This document shows, piece by piece, positions 2,309-60,565 of a stretch of DNA of 64,000 nucleotides. Within the stretch, counting starts at the first letter, position 1. Each line of letters begins with the position of its first letter. Both the position numbers and the translations under genes were made by a program. The notes below the pieces were generated by a model, which saw nothing but the letters and a program-made list of their open reading frames with translations, made no database searches and had not been told where the DNA came from. The stretch is from a bacterium (lineage in GTDB: Bacteria; UBP6; JAFGXH01): NCBI GenBank assembly GCA_016936735.1, contig JAFGXH010000321.1, forward strand, positions 7,221 through 71,220, written 5' to 3'.

Positions 2309-5300
2309 TTATGATAATCCCATTTGAGCAAGAAAATTTGTTGAATCTGATTGAATCTTACTCAATTGAGCCTCCATTGTTGCAAATTGGTTATAAAGAG
2401 CAGCCTCTTTTTGTTCATTTCTTGTTTGATAATACTCAATCTGCTCATATAAACTTACCAACTCTTTATCAATTGTTCCATTAACAACAGTTGCCTCTTT
2501 TAGTATTCCACCTCTTTTAACATAATCATTGATTTTATTATCAATAACACGAGCAATTCCTGAATCATATTGAGGATTTGTCTCTGAATTATTAGCAAAA
2601 AGACGATAAACCTCATAACTATTCTCTTTTAAATTTGTTAAAAGAGTGTTATTCTCTTTAAGAGTTTTTAATATTGATTCTCTATATTCATCACTATCAA
2701 CACCATCATCTTTTCCAAATAAAAGATAACCAGCTTTAGCATCATCATTAGAACCTGTTGAGGCAACTTTTAAACCAATAACATCTAAAGATGAAAACTC
2801 ATCAGGCATTCCCCCTCTTATACTTGTTACTGCTTGACGCATATATGATCCAAAATCTTGAAATGTTTTCTCTTTAAAAATTATATTATACTCATTATAC
2901 ATTTTAAAATAGGTATTATAATCCTCTATCTCTGTATATGTCATATTATTCATATCATCACTTGAAAGAGGATTTAGATATTTTTTCTGTTCAGAACTTA
3001 ATTTATCTGGATTTAAGCGAGTCATCAAATCATTATATCCAACAACAAAATCTGCTATCTCCTCTAAAACTTTGTCTGTATCAACCTGAATATCAAGTGT
3101 TACATTTGTTTCACTAACTCCATTAAGTTGAAATGACACATCTTTAATAACATCATCAATATCATTTGTTGAGCGAACATAAGAGACTCCATCAACCATG
3201 AAATTGGCATCTTTTCCTGCTACTCCAATCTCCTCATAAAGAGAACTAACACCATATTCAGCAAAAGCAGATGAAGCAACTGTGCCAGAAACATCTGTTA
3301 TCTGAAACTTTCCAGCAATTCCTGCTGTTTCTGATTCAAATTTGATTCCACCTAATCCATCAGCCTGAACAGAGAGACCACTTCCACCAAAATCAAATTT
3401 CCAAGAGATATCATATGCAATACTTAAAGAGTTATATATAGCTGAAGCAGTATCTGATGTGTTATCACTTTGAGTTACTCCACTTCCAAGACCAATTTGA
3501 GATATATCACTACCAGTATCATTAAAAATAGTAAAAGAGGCTGCAGCCCCTCCTGAAGAGTTAAAAAGACGAACTGATTCCCCTTCTCCTCCCAACATTT
3601 TTACCTGAACATTTGTAGAACTTCCTCCAAGAGTTGTCCAATTTGCTGTATTATTCCACTCCCTTATTAAATCATCTTTACTATATATTGTTTTTCCAGA
3701 GTTATTTGTCCATCTATAACCAGTTGAACCATCTGTTCCAGCCATAATAATAAAACTGGTTCCAGAGGTTATTCCCGTTGTAAAATCAAGATCTAAAAGC
3801 TCTGTATAGGCACCAGTTCCATTTGTTGCAGATAATGTGATATCAGTATTCACTCCACTTGCACCAAAATTTATAGTACTACCTGCAAAATTACCACTTA
3901 TTGATGAAAAATCACCATCTAAAGTTGATTTTTTAGAACTAATATTCATAACCTCTAAAAAGTTTGATGTATCATATGATGAACCAATTGTTACTCTTTT
4001 TTGATTTGTATCTACATCTCCCATTTTTGAGTATAGTAGAAATTGGTCTGTACTAGTATCATAAGATGCTATAACTCCTGCAGAGGAGTTATTTATTTTC
4101 TCAATAACTCCATTTAATGAGTCATTTTGATTAACATATATAGAGACTCCATTTATAGAGAATGTTCCATTTGAGACAGTTGCTCCTAAATTTGCTAGAT
4201 ATAAAGCCTTATTTGTATCTATTGAAGAGGTAGATGATGAGTTATAGGCTGTACCACCACTTGATAATGAGAGTTTTGTTGATGTTAAAAAATTTGAGTT
4301 ATCTGAATTAGCTCCTAATGATATTGCACTATTTGTTGTGTTTGAAGTTAACATAAATCTATCATTTATTGAATCATAAGTTGCTGTAACTCCAGCTTTT
4401 GAGCCATTTATCATTGCTAAAGCATCATTCATTGTGATGTTATCAATATCATTCAATGTTATTGCTACATTATTTATTGTGAATGTTGCACTTTTTTTAC
4501 CATCAGCACCAACAACACCTGTAATTGGTGCCTTAATACCACTATTATTCAGACCTGTTGTAAATAGGTTTATAGTTCCTGTTGCAACATCACTCCCCCC
4601 CTGAATTTTAGATTTTGTAATTGGAGTAGGATTAAGTGTTGATGAAATAACAGTTTCAAAACTCCCTTGCTTAAGAGATGATAAAGTTCTTATAGAATAA
4701 CCATTTAAAAAACTATTATTATTCATTGTTGTTCTAAGAGAATCAAAATCTAATGCTGTTATTTTTTTCTGAATAGAGTTTACAGTTTGAGATGTTGTAT
4801 TAGTTAAACCAAGAGCACTATTCGCAAGATCTCCACCACCATCATTATTTATTTTAACATAAGAGTTGCTATCCTCTGCAACATTATAAAAGGATAATGA
4901 GGCATTATTCGAACCATCTGGATTTGATGACTCAAGCATAACATAGGTTTTATTTTCTGTTCCAAAATGTGAATTAAGTTCACTATTTATTTTCTGCTGA
5001 ATCTCATCTGTTACAGAGGAGATTTTACTACTATTTGCTTGATAAAATCCTAACTCTATATCAAATGTATAATCACCATAACTTATATTAAGTCTATTAT
5101 TAGATCTATTGATATTTGTTCCAATAGTCTGTTCTGTTGTTCCCTCTAAAGATGTTCCAGATGTTTTTTGAATAATCCCCTTTTTATCAAGGGTTAATGT
5201 AGAGGTTGCTTCAACATAACTTGATTTATCTTCAAGATCTATTTTATATTTTCCCTCTATATTATATCTTGAGTTTCCATAAACAGAGGATGCTCCAGAT

Positions 5301-5665
5301 GTATTTGTTTCTGTTATAAACTTCATTTTTGATATACTATTTTTTCCCCATGCAGACTCTGCCAACTGTGAAACTCTCATTGAGTATGTTTTTGAAGAGG
5401 CATTTACACCAGCTGAACCAGTTAAAACAGAACTATTTGAACTTGTTGTCTTTTTTGTTTGAAAAGTAGACTCTAATTTTAGCTTTAAAAGTGTCTTCTG
5501 AAATGACTCCATTTGAGAGGAGACACTTTTATAAACATCCTTTTTTAGAGAAACTAATTTTGTTTTATCCTCAAGACGACTTACAGATTGCTTCTCTATT
5601 TTCATCAAATCTGTAATTAATCCTTGAATATCCATTCCAGATGCAAGACCTGTAATTTGAGTCAT
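2309..5665 (-). CDS. fliD: Flagellar filament cap protein FliD (hook-associated protein 2), giant 1118-aa form
   Basis: The N-terminus MTQITGLASGMDIQGLITDLMKIEKQSV and the C-terminus ...YNQFATMEAQLSKIQSDSTNFLAQM match the conserved FliD terminal coiled-coil segments. It has a very long G/S/T/N-rich central region. Gene order fliD-fliS supports the call. Confidence 0.8.
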   Translation of the reverse strand: MTQITGLASGMDIQGLITDLMKIEKQSVSRLEDKTKLVSLKKDVYKSVSSQMESFQKTLLKLKLESTFQTKKTTSSNSSVLTGSAGVNASSKTYSMRVSQLAESAWGKNSISKMKFITETNTSGASSVYGNSRYNIEGKYKIDLEDKSSYVEATSTLTLDKKGIIQKTSGTSLEGTTEQTIGTNINRSNNRLNISYGDYTFDIELGFYQANSSKISSVTDEIQQKINSELNSHFGTENKTYVMLESSNPDGSNNASLSFYNVAEDSNSYVKINNDGGGDLANSALGLTNTTSQTVNSIQKKITALDFDSLRTTMNNNSFLNGYSIRTLSSLKQGSFETVISSTLNPTPITKSKIQGGSDVATGTINLFTTGLNNSGIKAPITGVVGADGKKSATFTINNVAITLNDIDNITMNDALAMINGSKAGVTATYDSINDRFMLTSNTTNSAISLGANSDNSNFLTSTKLSLSSGGTAYNSSSTSSIDTNKALYLANLGATVSNGTFSINGVSIYVNQNDSLNGVIEKINNSSAGVIASYDTSTDQFLLYSKMGDVDTNQKRVTIGSSYDTSNFLEVMNISSKKSTLDGDFSSISGNFAGSTINFGASGVNTDITLSATNGTGAYTELLDLDFTTGITSGTSFIIMAGTDGSTGYRWTNNSGKTIYSKDDLIREWNNTANWTTLGGSSTNVQVKMLGGEGESVRLFNSSGGAAASFTIFNDTGSDISQIGLGSGVTQSDNTSDTASAIYNSLSIAYDISWKFDFGGSGLSVQADGLGGIKFESETAGIAGKFQITDVSGTVASSAFAEYGVSSLYEEIGVAGKDANFMVDGVSYVRSTNDIDDVIKDVSFQLNGVSETNVTLDIQVDTDKVLEEIADFVVGYNDLMTRLNPDKLSSEQKKYLNPLSSDDMNNMTYTEIEDYNTYFKMYNEYNIIFKEKTFQDFGSYMRQAVTSIRGGMPDEFSSLDVIGLKVASTGSNDDAKAGYLLFGKDDGVDSDEYRESILKTLKENNTLLTNLKENSYEVYRLFANNSETNPQYDSGIARVIDNKINDYVKRGGILKEATVVNGTIDKELVSLYEQIEYYQTRNEQKEAALYNQFATMEAQLSKIQSDSTNFLAQMGLS

Positions 5666-6477: not shown

Positions 6478-6951
6478 CTAATTTTCATTATCATCAAGTC
6501 CATCAAGACTTGTTGCATCTGGTTTTATTAAATCAAAATCCAGACTCTCTCCAAACTCTTTAGGAGTCTCAAAAGCATCCTCAATACTCTCTTTTATAAA
6601 CTCTTTCTCTTGATTTAATTTTTTGTTATCAATATATTCAGCAGCCTCAAGTAGAAGATTTCCTAAATCAATAACATTTTTATTTAGATTTTTTTCAAAA
6701 TGAATCTCTTTAAATGTTCCATTTTCCCAAGACATCATCTCAAAAAAAGAGTCTTTTCCTGTTTTTCCATCTGAAGATTTTGCAAAAACAACTTTACCAT
6801 TCTGAATTTGAATTACACCAAGATGCTTTCCACTTCTTATTTCAATAATTTTATTTTTATGTGTCATCATAATGAGCTGCATATAGTCGAATAGGGATAT
6901 CCCTGTTATAGTTGCAGAAAAGCCTTCAAAAGGAGAATGATTTGGTGCCAT
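6478..6951 (-). CDS. DUF4388 (PATAN-associated) domain protein
   Basis: The pattern GISLFDYMQLIMMTHKNKIIEIRSGKHLGVIQIQNGKVVFAKSSDGKTGKDSFFEMMSWENGTFKE matches the DUF4388 consensus (G.L..F.L.DLLQ.L....KTG.L........G.I....G.IV.A.....G..A...LL.W..G.F.F). It has an acidic C-tail. Confidence 0.6.
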   Translation of the reverse strand: MAPNHSPFEGFSATITGISLFDYMQLIMMTHKNKIIEIRSGKHLGVIQIQNGKVVFAKSSDGKTGKDSFFEMMSWENGTFKEIHFEKNLNKNVIDLGNLLLEAAEYIDNKKLNQEKEFIKESIEDAFETPKEFGESLDFDLIKPDATSLDGLDDNEN

Positions 6952-7259
6952 TCAATAACTCCTAAATATCAAGAATGATAACACAGAATATTTTTAATTG
7001 TCAACTTATTGATGTTGTAAATTTATACTATTACTATTTTGATAGATAAATAATACTATTTATCTATCATATTTTTTTAATAAAAAACTACTAAAATCTT
7101 TCATTATTTTGAAAAGATAATAAAAAATTAATTATCTTTAATATTAACTAGATTCGGATTATTATTTAAAAACTATAATAATCTAAACCCATTCTATATT
7201 TTTATTGAAATAAAAGAATAAAAATTATAAATAATAACTATACTACCTTAGGAGTAAAA

Positions 7260-8222
7260 ATGAGAACCATAATAATATTATTAACAACTCTACTATTATC
7301 ACCTCCTTTAATTTCAGAAGAGATTGTAAAATTTAAATCACCTCAATTTGAAAAAGCAATAAAAATATCATTAAAAAAAGGGAAAAATGATAAAATAACA
7401 AAAGAGGATGTATTAAAAACTAAAATACTTCTTTTAGCTTTTAAAAATTTGAAAACAATTGATGATATATCAATGTTTGAAAATGCTGAAATTGTTTATC
7501 TTCACAAAAATAAAATAGTGGATATATCTCCTTTAAAAAATTTAACAAAAATAAAAGAGCTTGATCTTTTAGGTAATAAAATAGTAGACATATCTCCGCT
7601 TGAGAATCTGATAAATTTAGAGATTCTAAATTTTGCTGAAAATAGAGTTACAGATATAACAAAACTATCAAAATTAGTAAAATTAACTGATCTATATATT
7701 AGCAATAATAAAATAAAAGATATATCAGTTTTAAAATATTTTACAAATCTTAAACAACTATATAGTATAGATAATTTGATAGTCGATATCTCATCTATAG
7801 AGTTTTGTAAAAATTTAGAACAGCTCTATCTTGATAACAATCCTATTAATAATATAACAGCTCTACAAAACTTAAAAAATTTATCTACTTTATCCCTAAA
7901 TAGTAGTAGAGTAGAGGATTTTTCAATAATTAAAGCACTAAAATCTTTAAGAACAGTATATTTGAAAAATCTAAAAATAGATGATATCTCTTTTTTATCT
8001 GAATTTGAACATCTTAACTCAATAAATATTTCAGATAATAATATTGTTGATTTAACTCCACTTAAAAATATAAAGTGGATAGAGTTTTTAGATATCACAA
8101 ACAATAAAGTAAAAGAGTTAACCCCTCTTAAAAACATTCCAGGAATAGATATAATTCATACTAAAGGAAATCCAATAACAGATTTTAGCCCAATTTCTCA
8201 TGCAAATCACATAACAAAATAG
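7260..8222 (+). CDS. Leucine-rich-repeat (internalin-like) secreted protein
   Basis: It has a signal peptide (MRTIIILLTTLLLSPPLISEE), then about twelve 22-residue LRR units of the form I.DISPL.NL.NL..L.L..N.I. Confidence 0.7.
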   Translation: MRTIIILLTTLLLSPPLISEEIVKFKSPQFEKAIKISLKKGKNDKITKEDVLKTKILLLAFKNLKTIDDISMFENAEIVYLHKNKIVDISPLKNLTKIKELDLLGNKIVDISPLENLINLEILNFAENRVTDITKLSKLVKLTDLYISNNKIKDISVLKYFTNLKQLYSIDNLIVDISSIEFCKNLEQLYLDNNPINNITALQNLKNLSTLSLNSSRVEDFSIIKALKSLRTVYLKNLKIDDISFLSEFEHLNSINISDNNIVDLTPLKNIKWIEFLDITNNKVKELTPLKNIPGIDIIHTKGNPITDFSPISHANHITK

Positions 8223-10677: not shown

Positions 10678-10834
10678 TTTTAATAGATTTTATTCTAAAA
10701 TCTATTTTTCCATAAAGTTATAAACTATAAATTATAACAATACAAATAAAAATTTTTATCTGGTTATAAAATAGTTACCAATTTAATTATTTAAGAAAGT
10801 TCTTTGATTTTAATGAGATATTTTTGTATTGTAA

Positions 10835-15925: not shown

Positions 15926-16161
15926 ATGTTAAAAAAATATTAGCTTTCAAAGCGTAATATTATAACATAAAGAGAGTAAGTAACCAATTATTTTTTTAAT
16001 TTTGTTGAGAATATAAACTATTTTATATTAAATTAATATACAAAGAGATTATTTAGATAATTAAATAGTTTTTATTATATATAAATTTTGTAACATTATT
16101 ACAATAAAAAACAGAAATTATCTTTTTAAATTAGAAGATTATTTGGGAGTTATAAAACAGA

Positions 16162-21214: not shown

Positions 21215-22405
21215 TTATTCAGATGCTTTAAAGTTATATATTGGTTTAATATGATTTAAAAGTTTTACACTATCTTTTGTATACTCAATAATCTCCTCAA
21301 TAGGTTTATATGCCATTGGTGCCTCATCAATAGTATCACTATTTATAGATGTTGTATATATCCCCTCCATACTATTTTTAAACTCATTAAGTGTTATTGT
21401 TGCTTTTGCTTTTGTTCTACTCATTAATCTTCCTGCACCATGAGGTGCAGAGTAGTTCCAATCAGAGTTTCCCAAACCTTCACAAATTAATGAACCATCT
21501 CTCATATTTATAGGAATTAAAACAATCTCCCCTTTTTTAGCAGAGATAGCCCCTTTTCTTAAAATATTTGTATCCATCTCAATATAGTTATGAATTGTTG
21601 TAAATGATTCAGCAATATTCAAACCTAAAGAGTCAATCATTGTATCAACAATAGCTTTTCGATTCCAAAGGGCAAACTGTTGAACAATATTCATATCATG
21701 AAGATATTTTTCCAAATCCTCACCCTTTAAATATGCCAAATTATTTGGAACAGATTCGATTGATATACTATTTAAAGTCTCCTGTATCTCTGACTCTCTT
21801 CCCTCATTTTTTAACTGTTTAATTATCTCTTTTTTTCTCTCTATATTTGAGGAGAGTTTTTTAATTGCCAATTTTTGATAGTACTCTGCAACCTGTTTTC
21901 CAAGATTTCTACTTCCAGAATGAACAACAAGATATATATTCTCATTATCATCAATATTTAATTCAATAAAGTGATTTCCTCCACCCAAAGTACCAATACT
22001 ATATTCAGCTCTCTCTTTATTAATATGGTTAATACAATATAGAGACTCTAAATCTACATTTTTTATATATTTATGAATAGAGTCTCTTGTTTGAAAGCCA
22101 GATGGAACATATTTTCTTATAGATTTATCAACTAGTTCTAAATCTATTTTTCTCTCTTTCAGAATAATAGTCTCCATACCACAGCCAATATCAACACCAA
22201 CAAGATTTGGAACAACTTTATCGGAAATTGTCATAGTTGTACCAATAGTACAACCTGCACCAGCATGAACATCTGGCATTATTCGTATTTTAGAGTTTTT
22301 AGAAAACTCCTGATTACAAAGAGTTTTTATCTGTTGAATAGCCTCATCCTCAATGTTTTTTGTAAAAACAGTTGCATTATTATATTTTCCAATAATCTCT
22401 ATCAT
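21215..22405 (-). CDS. rtcB: RNA ligase RtcB family
   Basis: It has MPDVHAGAGCTIG, VGVDIGCGM, a HSGSRNLG-like block and C-terminal PHGAGR. These are the RtcB metal and GTP-binding motifs. Confidence 0.85.
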   Translation of the reverse strand: MIEIIGKYNNATVFTKNIEDEAIQQIKTLCNQEFSKNSKIRIMPDVHAGAGCTIGTTMTISDKVVPNLVGVDIGCGMETIILKERKIDLELVDKSIRKYVPSGFQTRDSIHKYIKNVDLESLYCINHINKERAEYSIGTLGGGNHFIELNIDDNENIYLVVHSGSRNLGKQVAEYYQKLAIKKLSSNIERKKEIIKQLKNEGRESEIQETLNSISIESVPNNLAYLKGEDLEKYLHDMNIVQQFALWNRKAIVDTMIDSLGLNIAESFTTIHNYIEMDTNILRKGAISAKKGEIVLIPINMRDGSLICEGLGNSDWNYSAPHGAGRLMSRTKAKATITLNEFKNSMEGIYTTSINSDTIDEAPMAYKPIEEIIEYTKDSVKLLNHIKPIYNFKASE

Positions 22406-22661
22406 ATTTTACCCAAAAGATTTAATAAACAACAACATTAACTCTATTTTATTCTATATATCTCTTTTTATCCACAGAAATATTATTGATATAGTGATTT
22501 TGTTTTATCTTTTGTTTAGCATATATTTATTTATAGTGGTTTATAAATCTGTATTATCTTTTATTTTGGGGTAGATTTTTCTTAAAATCGATTTATCTTG
22601 AATTCATTTCTGTTAGTGGTTTGTTATAATTTTATAAAAATATATAAAAAACTATTAGTAT

Positions 22662-23013
22662 CCGAAAAATTTCTAGTACCTTCCGAAAAATTTCTGTCAC
22701 CTTCCGAAAAATTTCTAGCACCTTCCGAAAAATTTCTAGTACCTTCCGAAAAATTTCTAGTACCTTCCGAAAAATTTCTGTTACCTTCCGAAAAATTTTT
22801 AGTACCTTCCGAAAAATTTCTAGTACCTTCCGAAAAATTTCTAGCACCTTCCGAAAAATTTCTAATACCTTCCGAAAAATTTCTAGTACCTTCCGAAAAA
22901 TTTCTAGTACCTTCTGAAAAATTTCTAGTACCTTCTGAAAAATTTCTAGTACCTTCCGAAAAATTTCTGTTACCTTCCGAAAAATTTCTAGTACCTTCCG
23001 AAAAAATTTTTTT
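22662..23013. repeat. Tandem direct repeat array: 16 complete copies plus one partial copy of a 21-bp unit (consensus CCGAAAAATTTCTAGTACCTT)
   Basis: I counted head-to-tail units directly in the sequence. The variation is almost all in the three bases AGT of CTAGTACC (GTC, AGC, GTT, AAT) plus two CCG>CTG changes. The array lies in the 780-bp rtcB/ispH divergent intergenic region. Both strands give repeat-peptide ORFs (PSEKFLV and EIFRKVL). Confidence 0.9.
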
Positions 23014-23186
23014 AAGAAAAAAATAAAAACTTTTAGGTATGAATTCAAGATTTTTAGTTTACTTGAAAAATATCCAAAAAACAAACAGAGAATTAAAGAG
23101 TGTAAAGCAATTTTTAATTATAATTAAAAAACTATCGACATTTATTAATTTATTTTATATTATATCTTTTTAGTTTTGGGAGATTT

Positions 23187-24050
23187 ATGAATTACAAAAT
23201 AGAGATTGCAAGACATGCTGGATTCTGTTTTGGTGTTAAAAGAGCCTATGATATGGTTTTAAATGCACTAAAAACAGATGATTCTTTATATATGCTTGGA
23301 GATTTAATTCATAATAAACAGGTTGTTAATGAGTTAAAAGATAAAGGGGCTAAAGTTATTGAAAATTTAGACGGAATAGAGAATGGAACTCTTGTTATCA
23401 GAGCTCATGGAATTTCTATTGAGGAGTTAAATATAGCCCAGAAAAAAGGGTTTAATATTGTTGATGCAACATGCCCATATGTAAAAATTCCACAAAAGGC
23501 TGCTCAGAAACTCTCTGATGAAGACTATTTTATAATACTTGTTGGAGATAAAGGGCATCCAGAGGTTGACTCAATTGTTAGCTATTTAAAAAAAGATAAC
23601 TTTATTATCACAAAAAAAACATCAGATTTAACCTATGAGTTTTTCAAAAAAAATCCTAAAATAGGTGTTATCGCTCAAACAACACTTCCTCTTCAAACTC
23701 TTCAAGATATAATAACTTACTCACTAAATTATGCAAAAGAGATTAATATTATCAACTCAATTTGTGATGCAACATTTATAAGACAGGAGGAGACTTTAGA
23801 GTTGGCTCGAAATGCAGATTGTATGATTATACTAGGTGGAAAACACTCCGCTAATACAACCAGATTAAAAGAGTTAGCCTCTGTTTATTGCTCAAACACG
23901 CATCATATTGAGTCTGAACAGGAGTTAAAAAACTCTTGGTTTGAGAATGTAAACCACATTGGAATATCAGCGGGAGCATCAACTCCTGATGCTCAAATTG
24001 AGATTGTTAGGCAATATATTATATCTATTTTAGAGGAGAATAGTCTTTAA
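23187..24050 (+). CDS. ispH: 4-hydroxy-3-methylbut-2-enyl diphosphate reductase IspH/LytB
   Basis: MNYKIEIARHAGFCFGVKRA has the first Cys ligand. Further conserved Cys sit in DATCPYV and NSICDAT. It is 287 aa. Confidence 0.9.
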   Translation: MNYKIEIARHAGFCFGVKRAYDMVLNALKTDDSLYMLGDLIHNKQVVNELKDKGAKVIENLDGIENGTLVIRAHGISIEELNIAQKKGFNIVDATCPYVKIPQKAAQKLSDEDYFIILVGDKGHPEVDSIVSYLKKDNFIITKKTSDLTYEFFKKNPKIGVIAQTTLPLQTLQDIITYSLNYAKEINIINSICDATFIRQEETLELARNADCMIILGGKHSANTTRLKELASVYCSNTHHIESEQELKNSWFENVNHIGISAGASTPDAQIEIVRQYIISILEENSL

Positions 24051-24731: not shown

Positions 24732-24939
24732 ATAATTCTAAAAATATCATTTTTAAAAATCAATTACAATATTATGTTTTTCAATTTTGTTTGTTTAAAT
24801 AGAAAAATGCTTTATATCTTTTTTACAATTTAATATATTACCCTCCTTTTTTACAAAAAATAGTGTTATAATAGAAAGTCTCATATTTTTTTAAATATGA
24901 TAAATAAAAAATTAAATATTATAAAATAAGGAGAAAAAT

Positions 24940-56181: not shown

Positions 56182-58206
56182 TTATTTGACTCTTTTTTGA
56201 ATAACTCCATAATCCTGAATATTATACTCTTTAAAATTTTCAAGAATTTTTGAGGAATAGTGGGTATGTTTAAATCTTGAATCTAAAATATATATCTCTC
56301 CTGAATCATCTTTTGAACGAATTAGACGTCCAATTCCCTGTTTTAAAGATAGTATCATCTCATCTAGCATCCATTTAAAAAATAGAGATTTATTATTTGA
56401 TAACCTCTCTTTATTAAACATTATAGGATCCTCTTTTGAGGAGAATGGAAGTTTTACAATAACAACTCGAGAGAGTTTCTCCCCTTTTATATCAACCCCT
56501 TCCCAAAAAGATTTAGTCCCAAAAATTATTCCATTACTACTTTTTTTAAACTCCTCAATTAACATTGTTCTTGAGTAGTTCTCTCCCTGAACAAAAAGCT
56601 CTATTGATTTTGATTTAAAACCACTTTTAAATCTTTTAACTATCTGATTCATATCACTATATGAAGCAAACAGAACCATTCCCTGCCCCTTTTTTAAAAT
56701 TTTAATCAATTCAGATGCCATATCATCATAATATTTTGTATTTTGATAGCCATACTCAACAACTCCTGCAAAAAATGAGACCTGTTTTTTTAAATCAAAA
56801 GGGGATTTTAAAATCATTTCGGATGCTTTTGATATATTTAACCCTTTTTTCATATAATCAAAAGAGTTTGATATACTTAAAGTTGCTGATGTAAAAAGAT
56901 AGTTTTTATCCTCATCTAAAAATGTTTTTGCCAGTTTTGGGATTTCACTTAAATCAAGTGAATTAAAATTAAAGCCAGCTTTAACTTCATTAAATGTAAG
57001 CCATTTAACAACATTTATATCATCTTTTTTTAAATCAAAATGTGTTACAAACAGTTTATAAAAATCAATAAAAAAGGATTCTGATTCAATAAGAGATAGA
57101 TTTATTGCTTCATATAATGCTTTTTGTGGCTCAGAAAATTGTCCAGAGTCTCTCTCTATTGATGAGAAAAATAGTCTAAAATCTGAGTAAAAAATCTCAA
57201 AAGATGTTCTAAAAGTTTTTAATAGATTTAAAAATGGGCTATTTTTTTCAAAATCTGGATGATTGAGATTTATATTTTTATATGAGTTCAAATAGGATGA
57301 TATCTCAATAGAAAACTCATCAATTTTTTCTCTAAAAAGTGAAATCTGTTCTGATATGTTTTTAGCCTCATCAATAAAACTTACTCTTTTAAAAAGAGAG
57401 TAAATTGTTCCATTTGATAGAAAATCCTCAAGTTTTAAAAGATTATAGTTTAACTCATTATCTGAAACAGAGAGTGTTGTAACAGATTCAAGAGATTTTA
57501 ATAGATGATGAGCCTCATCAAAAACAATACCATTCATGTTTTTTAAAAATGGTATCTCTCGTTTATAGGCATCAGTCAGAAATAGGTGATGATTCATAAC
57601 TAATAAATCGGCTCTCTCTGCACTCACTCTTGTTTTAAAAAAATAGCATTTACTATAATGAGGACACTGCTTACCTCTACAGGAGTGTAGATTAGCATGT
57701 AACATTTTCCAAACAGATTGTGGAATCTCATGCTCCATCTCCTGATACTCTCCATTTTCACTTGATGCGATCCATTGAAATAGAGGTAGATGATATGGAG
57801 TAGATGGTTCATTTAAAAATTTATGAGCCCTCATAAGACAGAGATAATTAGAGCGTCCTTTTAATATTTGTACATTTATATCTCCTAATATTTCAGATAA
57901 TATTGGAATATCTTTATAAAAAATCTGCTCTTGTAGATGAATTGTACTTGTTGCAACAAGTGCTTTAAATTTCTCACCCCTCTCTTTTGCCTCTAAAACT
58001 TTCAAAAATATTGGTAAAAGATAACCAAATGTTTTACCAACACCTGTTGGAGCCTCAATAAATAGATAGCCATTTGAAGATAGCTGTTTATACCACTCCT
58101 CTCCAAATACAATCTGCTCATTACGAGTTTCAAAAGAGAAATCAGGATGTTCTTTTGAATAGTTTTGAAATTTATCAATAAAAAATTTTTTAAAATCAAT
58201 AGACAT
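56182..58206 (-). CDS. dinG: DinG/Rad3-family (XPD-like) ATP-dependent DNA helicase with an Fe-S cluster domain
   Basis: Walker A is EAPTGVGKT. The DEAH box is VFDEAHHL. The Cys cluster is CRGKQCPHYSKCYFF...C. It has C-terminal helicase C motifs. Confidence 0.75.
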   Translation of the reverse strand: MSIDFKKFFIDKFQNYSKEHPDFSFETRNEQIVFGEEWYKQLSSNGYLFIEAPTGVGKTFGYLLPIFLKVLEAKERGEKFKALVATSTIHLQEQIFYKDIPILSEILGDINVQILKGRSNYLCLMRAHKFLNEPSTPYHLPLFQWIASSENGEYQEMEHEIPQSVWKMLHANLHSCRGKQCPHYSKCYFFKTRVSAERADLLVMNHHLFLTDAYKREIPFLKNMNGIVFDEAHHLLKSLESVTTLSVSDNELNYNLLKLEDFLSNGTIYSLFKRVSFIDEAKNISEQISLFREKIDEFSIEISSYLNSYKNINLNHPDFEKNSPFLNLLKTFRTSFEIFYSDFRLFFSSIERDSGQFSEPQKALYEAINLSLIESESFFIDFYKLFVTHFDLKKDDINVVKWLTFNEVKAGFNFNSLDLSEIPKLAKTFLDEDKNYLFTSATLSISNSFDYMKKGLNISKASEMILKSPFDLKKQVSFFAGVVEYGYQNTKYYDDMASELIKILKKGQGMVLFASYSDMNQIVKRFKSGFKSKSIELFVQGENYSRTMLIEEFKKSSNGIIFGTKSFWEGVDIKGEKLSRVVIVKLPFSSKEDPIMFNKERLSNNKSLFFKWMLDEMILSLKQGIGRLIRSKDDSGEIYILDSRFKHTHYSSKILENFKEYNIQDYGVIQKRVK

Positions 58207-58516
58207 TTATAATCTCACTTTTCAAAAATAGTAAAAAATATAACAAAAAACTATTTAATAAATAGTTTTTATAATTTCTGATTATATCACAAATTTACTA
58301 AAATTATAGTAATAAAATGGTGTTTAGAAAAATATATTTGTTCATTATAGATTTTTCATGTAAAAATAAAATCTTGAATTCAAATCTATAGGTTATTATA
58401 GCAAAATATTTATTCCTAGAGTAAATGAGATATACTTCATGTAATAAATAGTTTTATTAGATGAAAAAAGATATCTCTTTTTACCTATTATTATTGAAAT
58501 AAAGAGGTTGTTATAA

Positions 58517-60429: not shown

Positions 60430-60565
60430 ATTAACTCCTCAAATAATAACAGTTTATTATAAACTATTTTTATATATTTTTCTATTAAAAGATTAAATTT
60501 TTATACTTTTATGATATTTTAATATTTTTTAATTTTAAGGATTGTTTAGTTTCAATAAAGAATTT

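Follow-up and report, generated by a model that had tools for sequence, protein, structure and literature searches.

Bacterial minisatellites, or VNTR loci (MLVA markers and loci of the MIRU type), are intergenic arrays of head-to-tail units of 10–100 bp that share high identity. They are restricted to a species or strain, they contain a few variant units that have spread by duplication, and their defining trait is copy-number polymorphism between strains. Direct repeats are also found in iteron arrays and in the repeat-type centromeres of plasmids, such as sopC of F and parC of R1, in which repeats of ~20 bp (or multiples of this length) lie on one face of the helix and accompany rep or par genes on plasmids. 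Natural curved DNA with phased A-tracts contains 3–6 tracts with a spacing of ~10–11 bp, close to the −35 element. In the A-tract work of Hagerman and Crothers, AnTn tracts in helical phase are reportedly predicted to sum to a large planar bend.

A further type of array is found inside small dispersed elements. The BrickBuilt elements of Porphyromonas gingivalis carry 1 to 22.8 copies of a 23-nt tandem repeat, together with a leader, a tail and 12-nt TIRs (PMC4596501). They are intergenic and species-restricted in sequence, and they occur in ~19 copies per genome, or 1 per ~120 kb (PMC4596501). The BrickBuilt TIRs match IS5-family elements, and PgRS/MITE464 is a minisatellite inside a MITE (PMC4596501).

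The 21-bp array described here, which lies between the divergent genes rtcB and ispH of a bacterium from an uncultured and poorly sampled lineage with ~29% GC, resembles each of these systems in part. It has the unit length, the identity between units, the intergenic position, the restricted distribution and the few duplicated variants of a VNTR locus, but it is known from one genome, while VNTR loci are defined by polymorphism between strains. With 16 near-perfect copies and A-tracts phased at exactly two turns, it stands at the tidy end of the VNTR range. Like iterons, sopC and parC, it consists of direct repeats of similar length that present their sites on one face. Unlike them, it is found on the core chromosome and lacks rep and par genes, a cluster of DnaA boxes and a GC-skew switch. 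Like the phased A-tract DNA upstream of promoters, it has AnTn tracts that recur in helical phase; however, it has 16 tracts with a 21-bp spacing at 125–520 bp from either promoter, in contrast to known curved promoters. Finally, it shares with BrickBuilt and PgRS/MITE464 a tandem array (23- and 41-nt units there, 21-nt units here) with a unique leader and tail and short inverted ends, an intergenic position, and the lack of any sequence match outside the species. It differs from BrickBuilt in that a single array is seen, the inverted arms form the center of a longer conserved patch with no terminus, neither a target-site duplication nor a transposase was found, and a third copy of the arm stands alone.

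Genomic Setting and Anatomy of the Array

The array is located in the 780-bp, AT-rich spacer between rtcB (21215–22405, minus strand), which encodes a 396-aa protein of the RtcB family, and ispH (23187–24050, plus strand), which encodes a 287-aa protein of the LytB family. The window, meaning the whole 64-kb stretch of DNA that was analyzed, has a core-chromosome context that includes rpoD, dnaG, rpoB/rpoC-sized open reading frames (ORFs), ribosomal proteins L21/L27 and flagellar genes. A sigma-54 activator gene lies two genes from rtcB. A sigma-54 promoter or enhancer array for rtcB was considered and rejected, as 22406–23186 contains no TGGCAC-N5-TTGCW-like site.

Repeat finding and consensus matching place 16 head-to-tail units of 21 bp, with the consensus CCGAAAAATTTCTAGTACCTT, at 22662–22997. 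These are followed by a degenerate 17th unit, and the array of 16 copies plus a partial unit that an earlier note on this DNA had described is thus real. Tandem Repeats Finder reports 22661–23005 (period 21, 16.4 copies, 93% matches, score 604) as by far the strongest tandem array in the window. When up to 3 mismatches are permitted, the consensus 21-mer has 16 matches in the window compared to 0 expected. The unit types follow one another in the order ABCAADEACFAAGGDA. Variant types recur in neighboring units (13 and 14) as well as in separated ones (3/9 and 6/15), which fits duplication or conversion within the array.

A leader of about 54 nt (22607–22661), which holds an extended −10-like sequence, separates the left copy of a flanking motif (see below) from the array. 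On the other side, the degenerate 17th unit and an A/T-rich tail, as delimited by unit alignment, span the 41 nt from the array to the right motif copy (22998–23038). Over 44 nt, the sequence at 23005–23048 shares 84% identity with intergenic DNA of a relative (L004, 5549–5591), although the homology is uncertain because this sequence is AT-rich. The GC content of the array is 33%, well above the 18–19% of the intergenic flanks, a difference that hints at a source other than slippage of the local intergenic DNA.

The locus is known from one genome and one sequencing run (SRR13394436). All k-mers of the array with a length of at least 52 are unique, and an assembler could therefore in principle resolve 16 copies. 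An independent assembly of this run at k=31, which cannot resolve the array interior, confirms the two edges only (up to 22597, and from 22976 on). The left k=31 contig (Logan) stops at 22597, which is 65 nt short of the array. Population heterogeneity was considered as the cause of this contig end and dropped, since k=31 contigs also stop in AT-rich intergenic sequence at 15985 and at 60481–60496. The contig end at 22597 is given no weight, because neither an inversion nor a repeat boundary would place it there and similar ends occur elsewhere.

The comparison across relatives that the earlier note had proposed finds the 21-bp repeat absent from the nearest relatives available, in which the gene order differs as well. 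These relatives (L006 and L010–L012), whose IspH is 83% identical, have only ~105–128 bp upstream of ispH and no array. Their ispH has another divergent neighbor, while their rtcB (81% identical) is found in another operon. The DNA pattern of the unit has 0 matches in one genome per GTDB species, in JGI metagenome contigs and in IMG/VR, and no solitary 21-bp unit occurs elsewhere in the 64-kb window. A literature search for “21-bp tandem repeat” found nothing relevant.

Variation between Units

The variants listed in the earlier note, and the clustering of the variation, are borne out when the array is compared unit by unit. At unit positions 14–16, AGT is replaced by GTC, AGC (in two units), GTT (in two units) or AAT. 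C>T changes are also seen, at position 2 in a pair of neighboring units and at position 12 in a single one. At least 5 of the 7 substitution events fall within 3 of the 21 unit positions (p ~0.001 if events are counted liberally, ~0.02 if conservatively), and the other 18 positions are nearly invariant.

The variable triplet overlaps the tetranucleotide CTAG, which occupies unit positions 12–15 and is avoided by the genome. The observed/expected ratio of CTAG is 0.38 in the window, where the array contributes 11 of the 52 occurrences, and 4 of the 6 variant alleles strike this word (binomial p ~0.014). This overlap provides a simpler explanation of the hypervariable triplet than a “non-contacted spacer” or a variable residue, and avoidance of CTAG by the genome may thus account for it. 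Alternatively, the variation could be clustered because the other 18 positions are under constraint, and not because CTAG is being eroded.

Coding Potential and Promoters

Two ORFs run through the array, one of 142 codons with PSEKFLV heptads (22598–23026, plus strand) and one of 150 codons with EIFRKVL heptads (22632–23084, minus strand). The earlier note had allowed for a heptad-repeat protein, and in support of such a protein it can be said that both frames are open throughout the array, and that changes in the plus frame are synonymous outside one codon, at which the variable residue is mostly hydrophobic. However, the consensus unit is open in 4 of 6 frames, and open frames are therefore uninformative; the number of synonymous alleles in the plus frame (3 of 6) is not significant. 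Both ORFs begin with TTG and have no Shine-Dalgarno sequence. Their CAI-like scores are 0.52 and 0.28, lower than that of every one of 31 real genes (0.61–0.81). The codon CGG, which is essentially unused by this genome (1 in 16,625 real codons and 0.2% of the Arg codons in real genes), occurs ~14 times in the minus-strand ORF. No homologue of the array peptide, in four frames, was found among 5.8 billion proteins, and the protein collection, which does include RtcB and IspH from this NCBI contig, has no entry for either ORF. Matches of the ORFs to Pfam are below or near threshold and fall on low-complexity sequence. On codon usage, ribosome-binding site, homology and annotation, both ORFs are judged not to be genes, and a genuine repeat protein in either frame is scarcely credible.

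The core promoters of both genes are gene-proximal and lie outside 22662–22997, and therefore the array cannot be a −35/−10 spacer. The suggestion of a phase-variable promoter spacer does not fit these positions. The ispH promoter, TCGACA-17-TATTAT (23135–23163, plus strand; 10 of 12 matches), is conserved in relatives, with hexamers and spacing identical in L006 and L010. The candidate rtcB promoter, TGGATA-17-TAAAAT (22446–22474, minus strand; 9 of 12 matches), is a consensus match only. No Rfam match was found in the window or in the corresponding loci of relatives. A CsrB/RsmZ-like sponge RNA was also considered and rejected, as there is neither an Rfam match nor a terminator. The motif of sponge-type RNAs is A(N)GGA in a loop, which is unlike the CGGAAGG of the minus strand of the unit.

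The Flanking Bipartite Motif

The 13-bp inverted pair around the array is exact, as the earlier note had reported, with arms at 22595–22607 and 23039–23051 that are 431 bp apart. The further claim that such a pair is unlikely by chance is wrong: the window has 15 different perfect inverted pairs that are 13 bp or longer and fall within 600 bp, compared to 3.3 in Markov simulations. The sole unusual thing about this pair is its placement around the array. In a post hoc test, only 0.22% of arbitrary 352-bp segments had an inverted pair within 70 bp of each side, an uncommon arrangement that a neutral minisatellite does not require.

The arms are part of a bipartite motif of 35 nt, TGAATTCAAGAT-N13-GAAAAATMTM, which has three perfect copies in the window compared to 0.06 matches expected even with 3 mismatches permitted. 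The left copy (22572–22606, minus strand), which includes the left arm, points toward rtcB at 166 nt from its ATG. The right copy (23040–23074, plus strand), which includes the right arm, points toward ispH at 112 nt from its ATG. The third copy (58348–58382, minus strand) is solitary, 35 kb from the array and without an inverted partner, and it is found 141 nt upstream of the gene for a DinG-like helicase (56182–58206, minus strand). All three copies face the 5′ end of the adjoining gene. The inverted repeat is thus part of a dispersed motif, and not the specific bracket of the array that the earlier note had seen in it. The same note had reasoned that dispersed copies would speak against a role particular to this locus; such dispersal is found in part for the 13-mer, through the third motif copy, but not for the 21-mer.

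The 35-nt motif is most simply read as a candidate upstream regulatory site. A conserved RNA structure was not found in it, as its hairpin is weak (−1.5 kcal/mol), shows no compensatory changes and is broken in one copy. The motif has 0 matches in viral contigs. A relationship between the array unit and the distal box of the motif (GAAAAATTTCTA compared to GAAAAATCTA) was considered and rejected, since 6–48% of shuffled units score equally.

Helical Phasing and Predicted Curvature

The 21-bp period corresponds to two helical turns, a point on which the earlier note is upheld, and in the curvature models the contributions of the A-tracts sum in phase. Each unit holds an A5T3 tract, and with these tracts in phase every two helical turns, strong intrinsic curvature of the array is predicted. 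The ratio of end-to-end distance to contour length is 0.08–0.15 in two wedge models, where the array is more curved than any other 336-bp stretch of the window; the remaining two models place it in the lowest 0–6% of the window. Three of the four models predict a total bend of ~320–420 degrees. The observed curvature is matched by 1–5% of shuffled 21-bp units in the wedge models and by ~30% in the others, under the model parameters that were entered. Moreover, arrays with a 21-bp period are mostly somewhat curved in any case.

The inverted GAA/TTC motif that had been proposed forms at best a dyad with 6 of 10 pairs, which is equalled by 51% of shuffled units. The proposed likeness to iteron or operator arrays does not hold either, as there is no rep gene, DnaA-box cluster, sigma-54 promoter, solitary unit or dyad symmetry. 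A replication origin was rejected on the basis of a single DnaA box (22468), with no cluster and no skew switch. With up to 1 mismatch, the window contains 21 DnaA-box matches compared to 23 expected, and its GC skew is monotonic save for the effect of gene orientation. The sequence GTACTAG on the minus strand of the unit recalls the half-site of the E. coli trp operator, which is presumably the coincidence to be expected of a 7-mer.

Origin and Possible Functions of the Array

The array is probably a young, non-coding and lineage-specific minisatellite. Of the readings in the earlier note, that of a recently expanded minisatellite is favored here, given the identity between units (10 of the 16 are identical), the absence from relatives and the non-coding character. 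The array would have expanded by replication slippage or unequal recombination within the AT-rich rtcB/ispH spacer, which is present in this lineage alone, at a synteny breakpoint. It does not look translated, lies upstream of both core promoters and between inverted copies of the 35-nt motif that each face their own gene, and would have no sequence-specific function. Changes in copy number, in steps of 21 bp, would preserve the helical phase between the flanking motif copies. The phased architecture is regarded as a by-product and not as an evolved device.

Two alternatives involve DNA mobility or rearrangement. The array could be the internal minisatellite of a MITE-like, non-autonomous element in the style of BrickBuilt and PgRS, with the motif copies as TIRs, the leader of about 54 nt and the 41-nt tail as unique arms, and the third motif copy as a solo end. 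Its architecture matches that of BrickBuilt of Porphyromonas gingivalis, with inverted arms near both array ends, a dispersed arm motif, a GC content unlike that of the flanks and a location at a synteny breakpoint. Such an element is nevertheless doubtful, because the similarity among the three motif copies extends past the 12-mer core on both sides, and thus no TIR terminus is defined. The only potential target-site duplication is TTT on each side, which is not convincing in a genome with ~36% T. There are no transposase genes across the 64-kb window, nor is there a second array, leader or tail, and the third motif copy lacks an inverted partner. A scan of JGI metagenomes for the motif arm and subterminal bases gave one chance match, inside a methyltransferase-like ORF. 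No second copy of the whole element was found in the 64 kb or in the searched collections, an outcome that the density of BrickBuilt would also permit. An inverton, in which a recombinase would flip 22608–23038 between the 13-bp repeats and turn the leader promoter from ispH to rtcB, is very improbable. Exact inverted repeats at a distance of 431 bp between divergent genes would suit it, as would the candidate promoter inside the segment (extended −10-like, with no −35 element). However, no recombinase gene occurs across the 64-kb window, the third motif copy is solitary, and rtcB and ispH each have their own proximal promoter. In the k=31 assembly, a contig (L002) in the reference orientation links the last array unit to ispH across the right inverted repeat without branching, and the left contig stops at 22597 rather than at 22607, where an inversion would branch the graph.

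Other alternatives assign the array a function in place. It is unlikely to be a functional architectural or protein-binding element, in which a nucleoid-associated protein or a specific DNA-binding one would be drawn to 16 same-face sites or to the intrinsic bend, with looping or insulation of the two flanking motif copies and of the promoters of rtcB and ispH as the result. The exact two-turn period, the phased A-tracts and the large predicted bend are consistent with such an element, as are the near-invariance of 18 of the 21 unit positions and the location between inverted, likely regulatory motif copies in a divergent promoter region. On the other hand, relatives do not share the array, the 64 kb contain no single unit apart from it, the unit has no dyad symmetry, and the hotspot of variation coincides with the avoided CTAG. 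Recent expansion alone would yield near-identical units without selection, and most 21-bp-period arrays are somewhat curved regardless. There is little chance that the array is an evolved device in which a bend of ~360 degrees, as modeled, would pair the inverted TGAATTCAAGAT-N13-GAAAAAT copies so that one regulator co-controls rtcB and ispH via a pre-formed loop, with two-turn steps in copy number that would tune the loop and leave the phase unchanged. Transcription of the array is similarly improbable. The extended −10-like TGTTATAAT of the leader (22622–22630, plus strand) would read through the array toward ispH and produce a long ispH leader or a 16-repeat non-coding RNA. In its favor, TGNTATAAT is enriched (17 occurrences compared to 7.6 expected), with four other copies 34–75 nt upstream of gene starts, and no terminator is predicted from the array to ispH. 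RNA folding differs by strand (z = +2.4 for the plus strand and z = −5.3 for the minus strand, the latter via G-U pairs), and CCUUCC on the plus strand is, by inspection, a candidate partner for the GGGAG ribosome-binding site of ispH. However, TGTTATAAT has no −35 element, ispH is already served by a conserved proximal promoter, and the 21-bp repeat is not kept in relatives.

Implications

Should intrinsic curvature be the means by which the array acts, it would stand out among natural examples for its unusual length, but nothing found here demands this. The value of the young minisatellite reading is mostly corrective, in that iteron, inverton and repeat-protein readings of a tidy, flanked array fail simple tests. 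The dispersed 35-nt motif is the more useful lead, as a candidate regulatory site upstream of rtcB, ispH and the gene for the DinG-like helicase.

The minisatellite and its variation

The spacer between the divergent, Pfam-confirmed genes rtcB (21215–22405, minus strand) and ispH (23187–24050, plus strand) is 780 bp long (22406–23186) and very AT-rich. It contains 16 head-to-tail 21-bp units with the consensus CCGAAAAATTTCTAGTACCTT (22662–22997), followed by a degenerate 17th unit. This array, first reported in the earlier note, is real: its Tandem Repeats Finder score is 604, compared to about 90 or less for every other array in the window, and the unit consensus has 16 matches in the window compared to 0 expected. 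All k-mers of 52 nt or more are unique across the region, which means that a standard assembler can resolve the 16 copies. A second, independent assembly (Logan, k=31) made from run SRR13394436 is 100% identical to the window in all overlaps, but stops on the left at 22597 and restarts on the right at 22976, so that it confirms the array edges only. Its left contig (L001) ends 65 nt short of the array and three bases inside the flanking 13-mer, which matches neither an inversion junction nor a repeat boundary. This break is likely due to low coverage. Other contigs of the same assembly also break in AT-rich spacers (15985, 60481–60496).

Ten units are identical to one another. At unit positions 14–16, AGT is replaced by GTC, AGC (twice), GTT (twice) or AAT; the remaining changes are C>T at position 2 in two neighbouring units and C>T at position 12 in a single unit. 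At least 5 of 7 substitution events fall within 3 of the 21 unit positions (p ~0.001, or ~0.02 with AG-to-GT counted as one event). The variable triplet is a genuine cluster, but neither a protein-contact spacer nor a variable residue is needed to account for it, since CTAG avoidance could suffice. CTAG is observed 41 times compared to 108 expected (ratio 0.38), GATC is depleted likewise (observed/expected 0.36), and GCGC occurs 0 times in the window compared to 5 expected; these depletions may reflect restriction-modification pressure or repair bias. The array carries 11 CTAGs, one fifth of the window total, and the CTAG at unit positions 12–15 is lost in 4 of 6 variant alleles (binomial p ~0.014). 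Erosion of an avoided CTAG in a newly amplified unit would explain the hotspot, with no need for constraint elsewhere in the unit, and argues that the array is young.

Coding potential

Heptad-repeat frames cover the array on both strands (PSEKFLV on plus, EIFRKVL on minus), and a repeat-peptide gene had been considered on this basis. Both ORFs have TTG as their start codon and no Shine-Dalgarno sequence, while a core Shine-Dalgarno is found in 16 of 31 real genes. The minus frame requires CGG in almost all units, a codon found a single time among 16,625 codons of real genes, and CAI-like scores are 0.28 (minus) and 0.52 (plus) compared to 0.61–0.81 for real genes. Joined with the unit's two other open frames and searched against 5.8 billion protein clusters, the two ORFs returned one irrelevant low-complexity match only. 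A 15-billion-protein collection that includes RtcB and IspH from this NCBI contig contains neither ORF, and no pipeline calls them as genes. Synonymous changes account for 3 of 6 variant alleles in the plus frame, a share that is not significant, and four of the six consensus-unit frames are open, so that openness is uninformative. A heptad-repeat protein can be set aside, as it fails on start codon, ribosome-binding site, codon usage, homology and annotation.

The flanking inverted pair and a dispersed motif

The array lies between ATCTTGAATTCAT (22595–22607) and its exact reverse complement (23039–23051). This 13-bp pair was described correctly, but the argument that it is unlikely by chance is wrong, as the window holds 15 different perfect inverted pairs with arms of 13 bp or longer, spaced within 600 bp. 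Only its position is out of the ordinary: among arbitrary 352-bp segments, 0.22% are flanked by such a pair within 70 bp on both sides.

A third related site emerged when the spacer flanks were compared with the window by BLAST. A gapless three-way alignment places the 13-bp arms at the core of a longer, 35-nt bipartite motif, TGAATTCAAGAT-N13-GAAAAATMTM, with exactly three perfect copies in the window; 0.06 would be expected even with three mismatches allowed. The left copy (22572–22606, minus) points toward rtcB, whose ATG is 166 nt away, the right copy (23040–23074, plus) toward ispH (112 nt), and the third (58348–58382, minus) toward a DinG-like helicase gene (141 nt). Read from TGAATTCA to GAAAAAT, all three face the 5′ end of the next gene. 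The third copy and this orientation indicate that the apparent bracket consists of two back-to-back copies of a dispersed intergenic motif, in a region where two promoters diverge. The possibility that both repeats are dispersed is borne out in part for the 13-mer but not for the 21-mer; no solitary 21-bp unit was found in the window outside the array.

A separate perfect palindrome with 13-nt arms (TGATAGATAAATA ... TATTTATCTATCA) occurs at 7040–7069, inside a loose 35-bp repeat of 2.9 copies (7021–7125). It lies in the spacer between a divergent DUF4388/PatA_N gene (6478–6951, minus) and a leucine-rich-repeat gene (7260–8222, plus), and looks like a candidate operator.

Promoters, transcription and predicted curvature

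The best sigma-70-like site in the spacer is that for ispH (23135–23163, TCGACA-17-TATTAT), and relatives have the same hexamers and spacing ahead of their ispH. For rtcB there is a weaker candidate at 22474–22446. No sigma-54 promoter was found, and the array contains no promoter-like sites or terminators. Because the array is upstream of both core promoters, classical phase variation through a change in −35/−10 spacing is inapplicable, and the proposed phase-variable promoter spacer is not supported. An extended −10-like word, TGTTATAAT (22622–22630), would read into the array. It is enriched in the window (17 compared to 7.6 expected), with other copies 34–75 nt upstream of gene starts, so transcription through the array, giving ispH a distal leader, is possible. 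Promoters of the extended −10 type may be widespread in this lineage: TGNTATAAT occurs, for example, at 10731–10739 (minus), 15959–15967 (minus), 24864–24872 (plus) and 58281–58289 (minus), 17 times compared to 7.6 expected, often with start codons 34–75 nt downstream. Plus-strand RNA across 22650–23030 has less structure than shuffled sequence (z = +2.4), and minus-strand RNA reaches −99 kcal/mol (z = −5.3) by G-U pairs between units. No Rfam family was matched.

There is one A5T3 tract per unit, and the period, as the earlier note pointed out, equals two helical turns. Curvature was predicted with four dinucleotide wedge/roll models, whose results are semi-quantitative. The summed bend is ~360–420 degrees in two wedge models, ~320 in De Santis and ~120 in Calladine-Drew. 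The two wedge models give an end-to-end/contour ratio of 0.08–0.15, the most curved 336-bp stretch of the window, and the other two place the array among the window's lowest 0–6%. Shuffled 21-bp units are often curved too, which means that curvature is partly automatic for this period.

The context lends no support to the suggested iteron or operator array. A replication origin is rejected, as there is neither a DnaA-box cluster nor a skew switch, and an operator array lacks solitary units in the window and dyad symmetry. The latter was looked for in the unit and none was found, which also removes the supposed inverted GAA/TTC motif.

Relatives and synteny

The source of the window is an NCBI metagenome-assembled genome (RtcB, MBN2695395.1, on a 78-kb contig) with no close relative among GTDB species, represented by one genome each. 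In the nearest relatives (GCA_973787025.1, GCA_020718465.1, a JGI contig and SRR1560850; IspH 83% identical), the region upstream of ispH is just ~105–128 bp, with a gene for a 904-aa surface-type protein opposite, and neither the array nor rtcB is present there. Their rtcB (81% identical) lies in a different operon, after a hydrolase gene, and none of their remaining flanking genes is present in the window. This short spacer and the different neighbours place the array in a lineage-only spacer, at a synteny breakpoint. The relatives' loci contain neither the 21-mer nor a motif copy, and the unit pattern has 0 matches in GTDB species representatives, JGI metagenomes and IMG/VR.

Beyond one relative at 81% identity (L004, 10001–11191), the closest rtcB homologues are 62–67% identical, the named ones mostly from Clostridia, and the next ispH homologues (~46–51%) are Desulfuromonadales/Geobacter-like, which hints that rtcB (21215–22405) was acquired by horizontal transfer. 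Relatives also have a second RtcB of 448 aa (L004, 5969–7315) adjoining an RF-1-family (PrfH-like) gene. Within the long spacer upstream of this operon, a stretch at L004 5620–5740 is noticeably GC-richer and has hairpin potential; it matches no Rfam family and might represent an RNA that lacks annotation. In a more distant relative (L007, IspH 51% identical), a 41-bp repeat of 3.1 copies lies directly downstream of ispH and runs into the contig end (8918–9045); intergenic minisatellites may be frequent in the group.

Origin of the array

Among described systems, BrickBuilt/PgRS of Porphyromonas gingivalis comes closest in architecture: a 23-nt or 41-nt minisatellite lies within a MITE that has a leader, a tail and terminal inverted repeats of 12 nt. 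A genome has ~19 copies, which are confined to the species and in every case intergenic (PMC4596501). A MITE of this kind and a functional architectural array are jointly the main rival explanations. The layout of the rtcB-ispH locus agrees with the former, with unique DNA between each motif copy and the array. However, the locus shows no target-site duplication and no defined terminus, and the available sequence yields no second copy and no IS with matching ends, so it is not classed as a MITE here. No recombinase or transposase is found in the window, which belongs to the core chromosome, with rpoD, dnaG, two rpoB/rpoC-sized ORFs, ribosomal proteins L21/L27 and flagellar genes. At 2309–5665 (minus), a homologue of the flagellar cap protein FliD (1118 aa) has a large insert of ~700 aa without a Pfam match between its N- and C-terminal FliD domains.

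The locus behaves as an ordinary bacterial intergenic minisatellite. On balance, it is probably a young, non-coding, lineage-specific array that would have grown in the interval between two inverted copies of the dispersed upstream motif, with its strong predicted curvature as a by-product. What the earlier note observed is largely correct, but its interpretation is mostly unsupported.

The part of the locus most worth pursuing is the dispersed 35-nt motif. No conserved RNA structure was found in it, and by inspection its spacing is not that of a sigma-70, sigma-54 or ECF promoter. The simplest reading is that it is a candidate upstream regulator-binding site, for which three copies are no proof.
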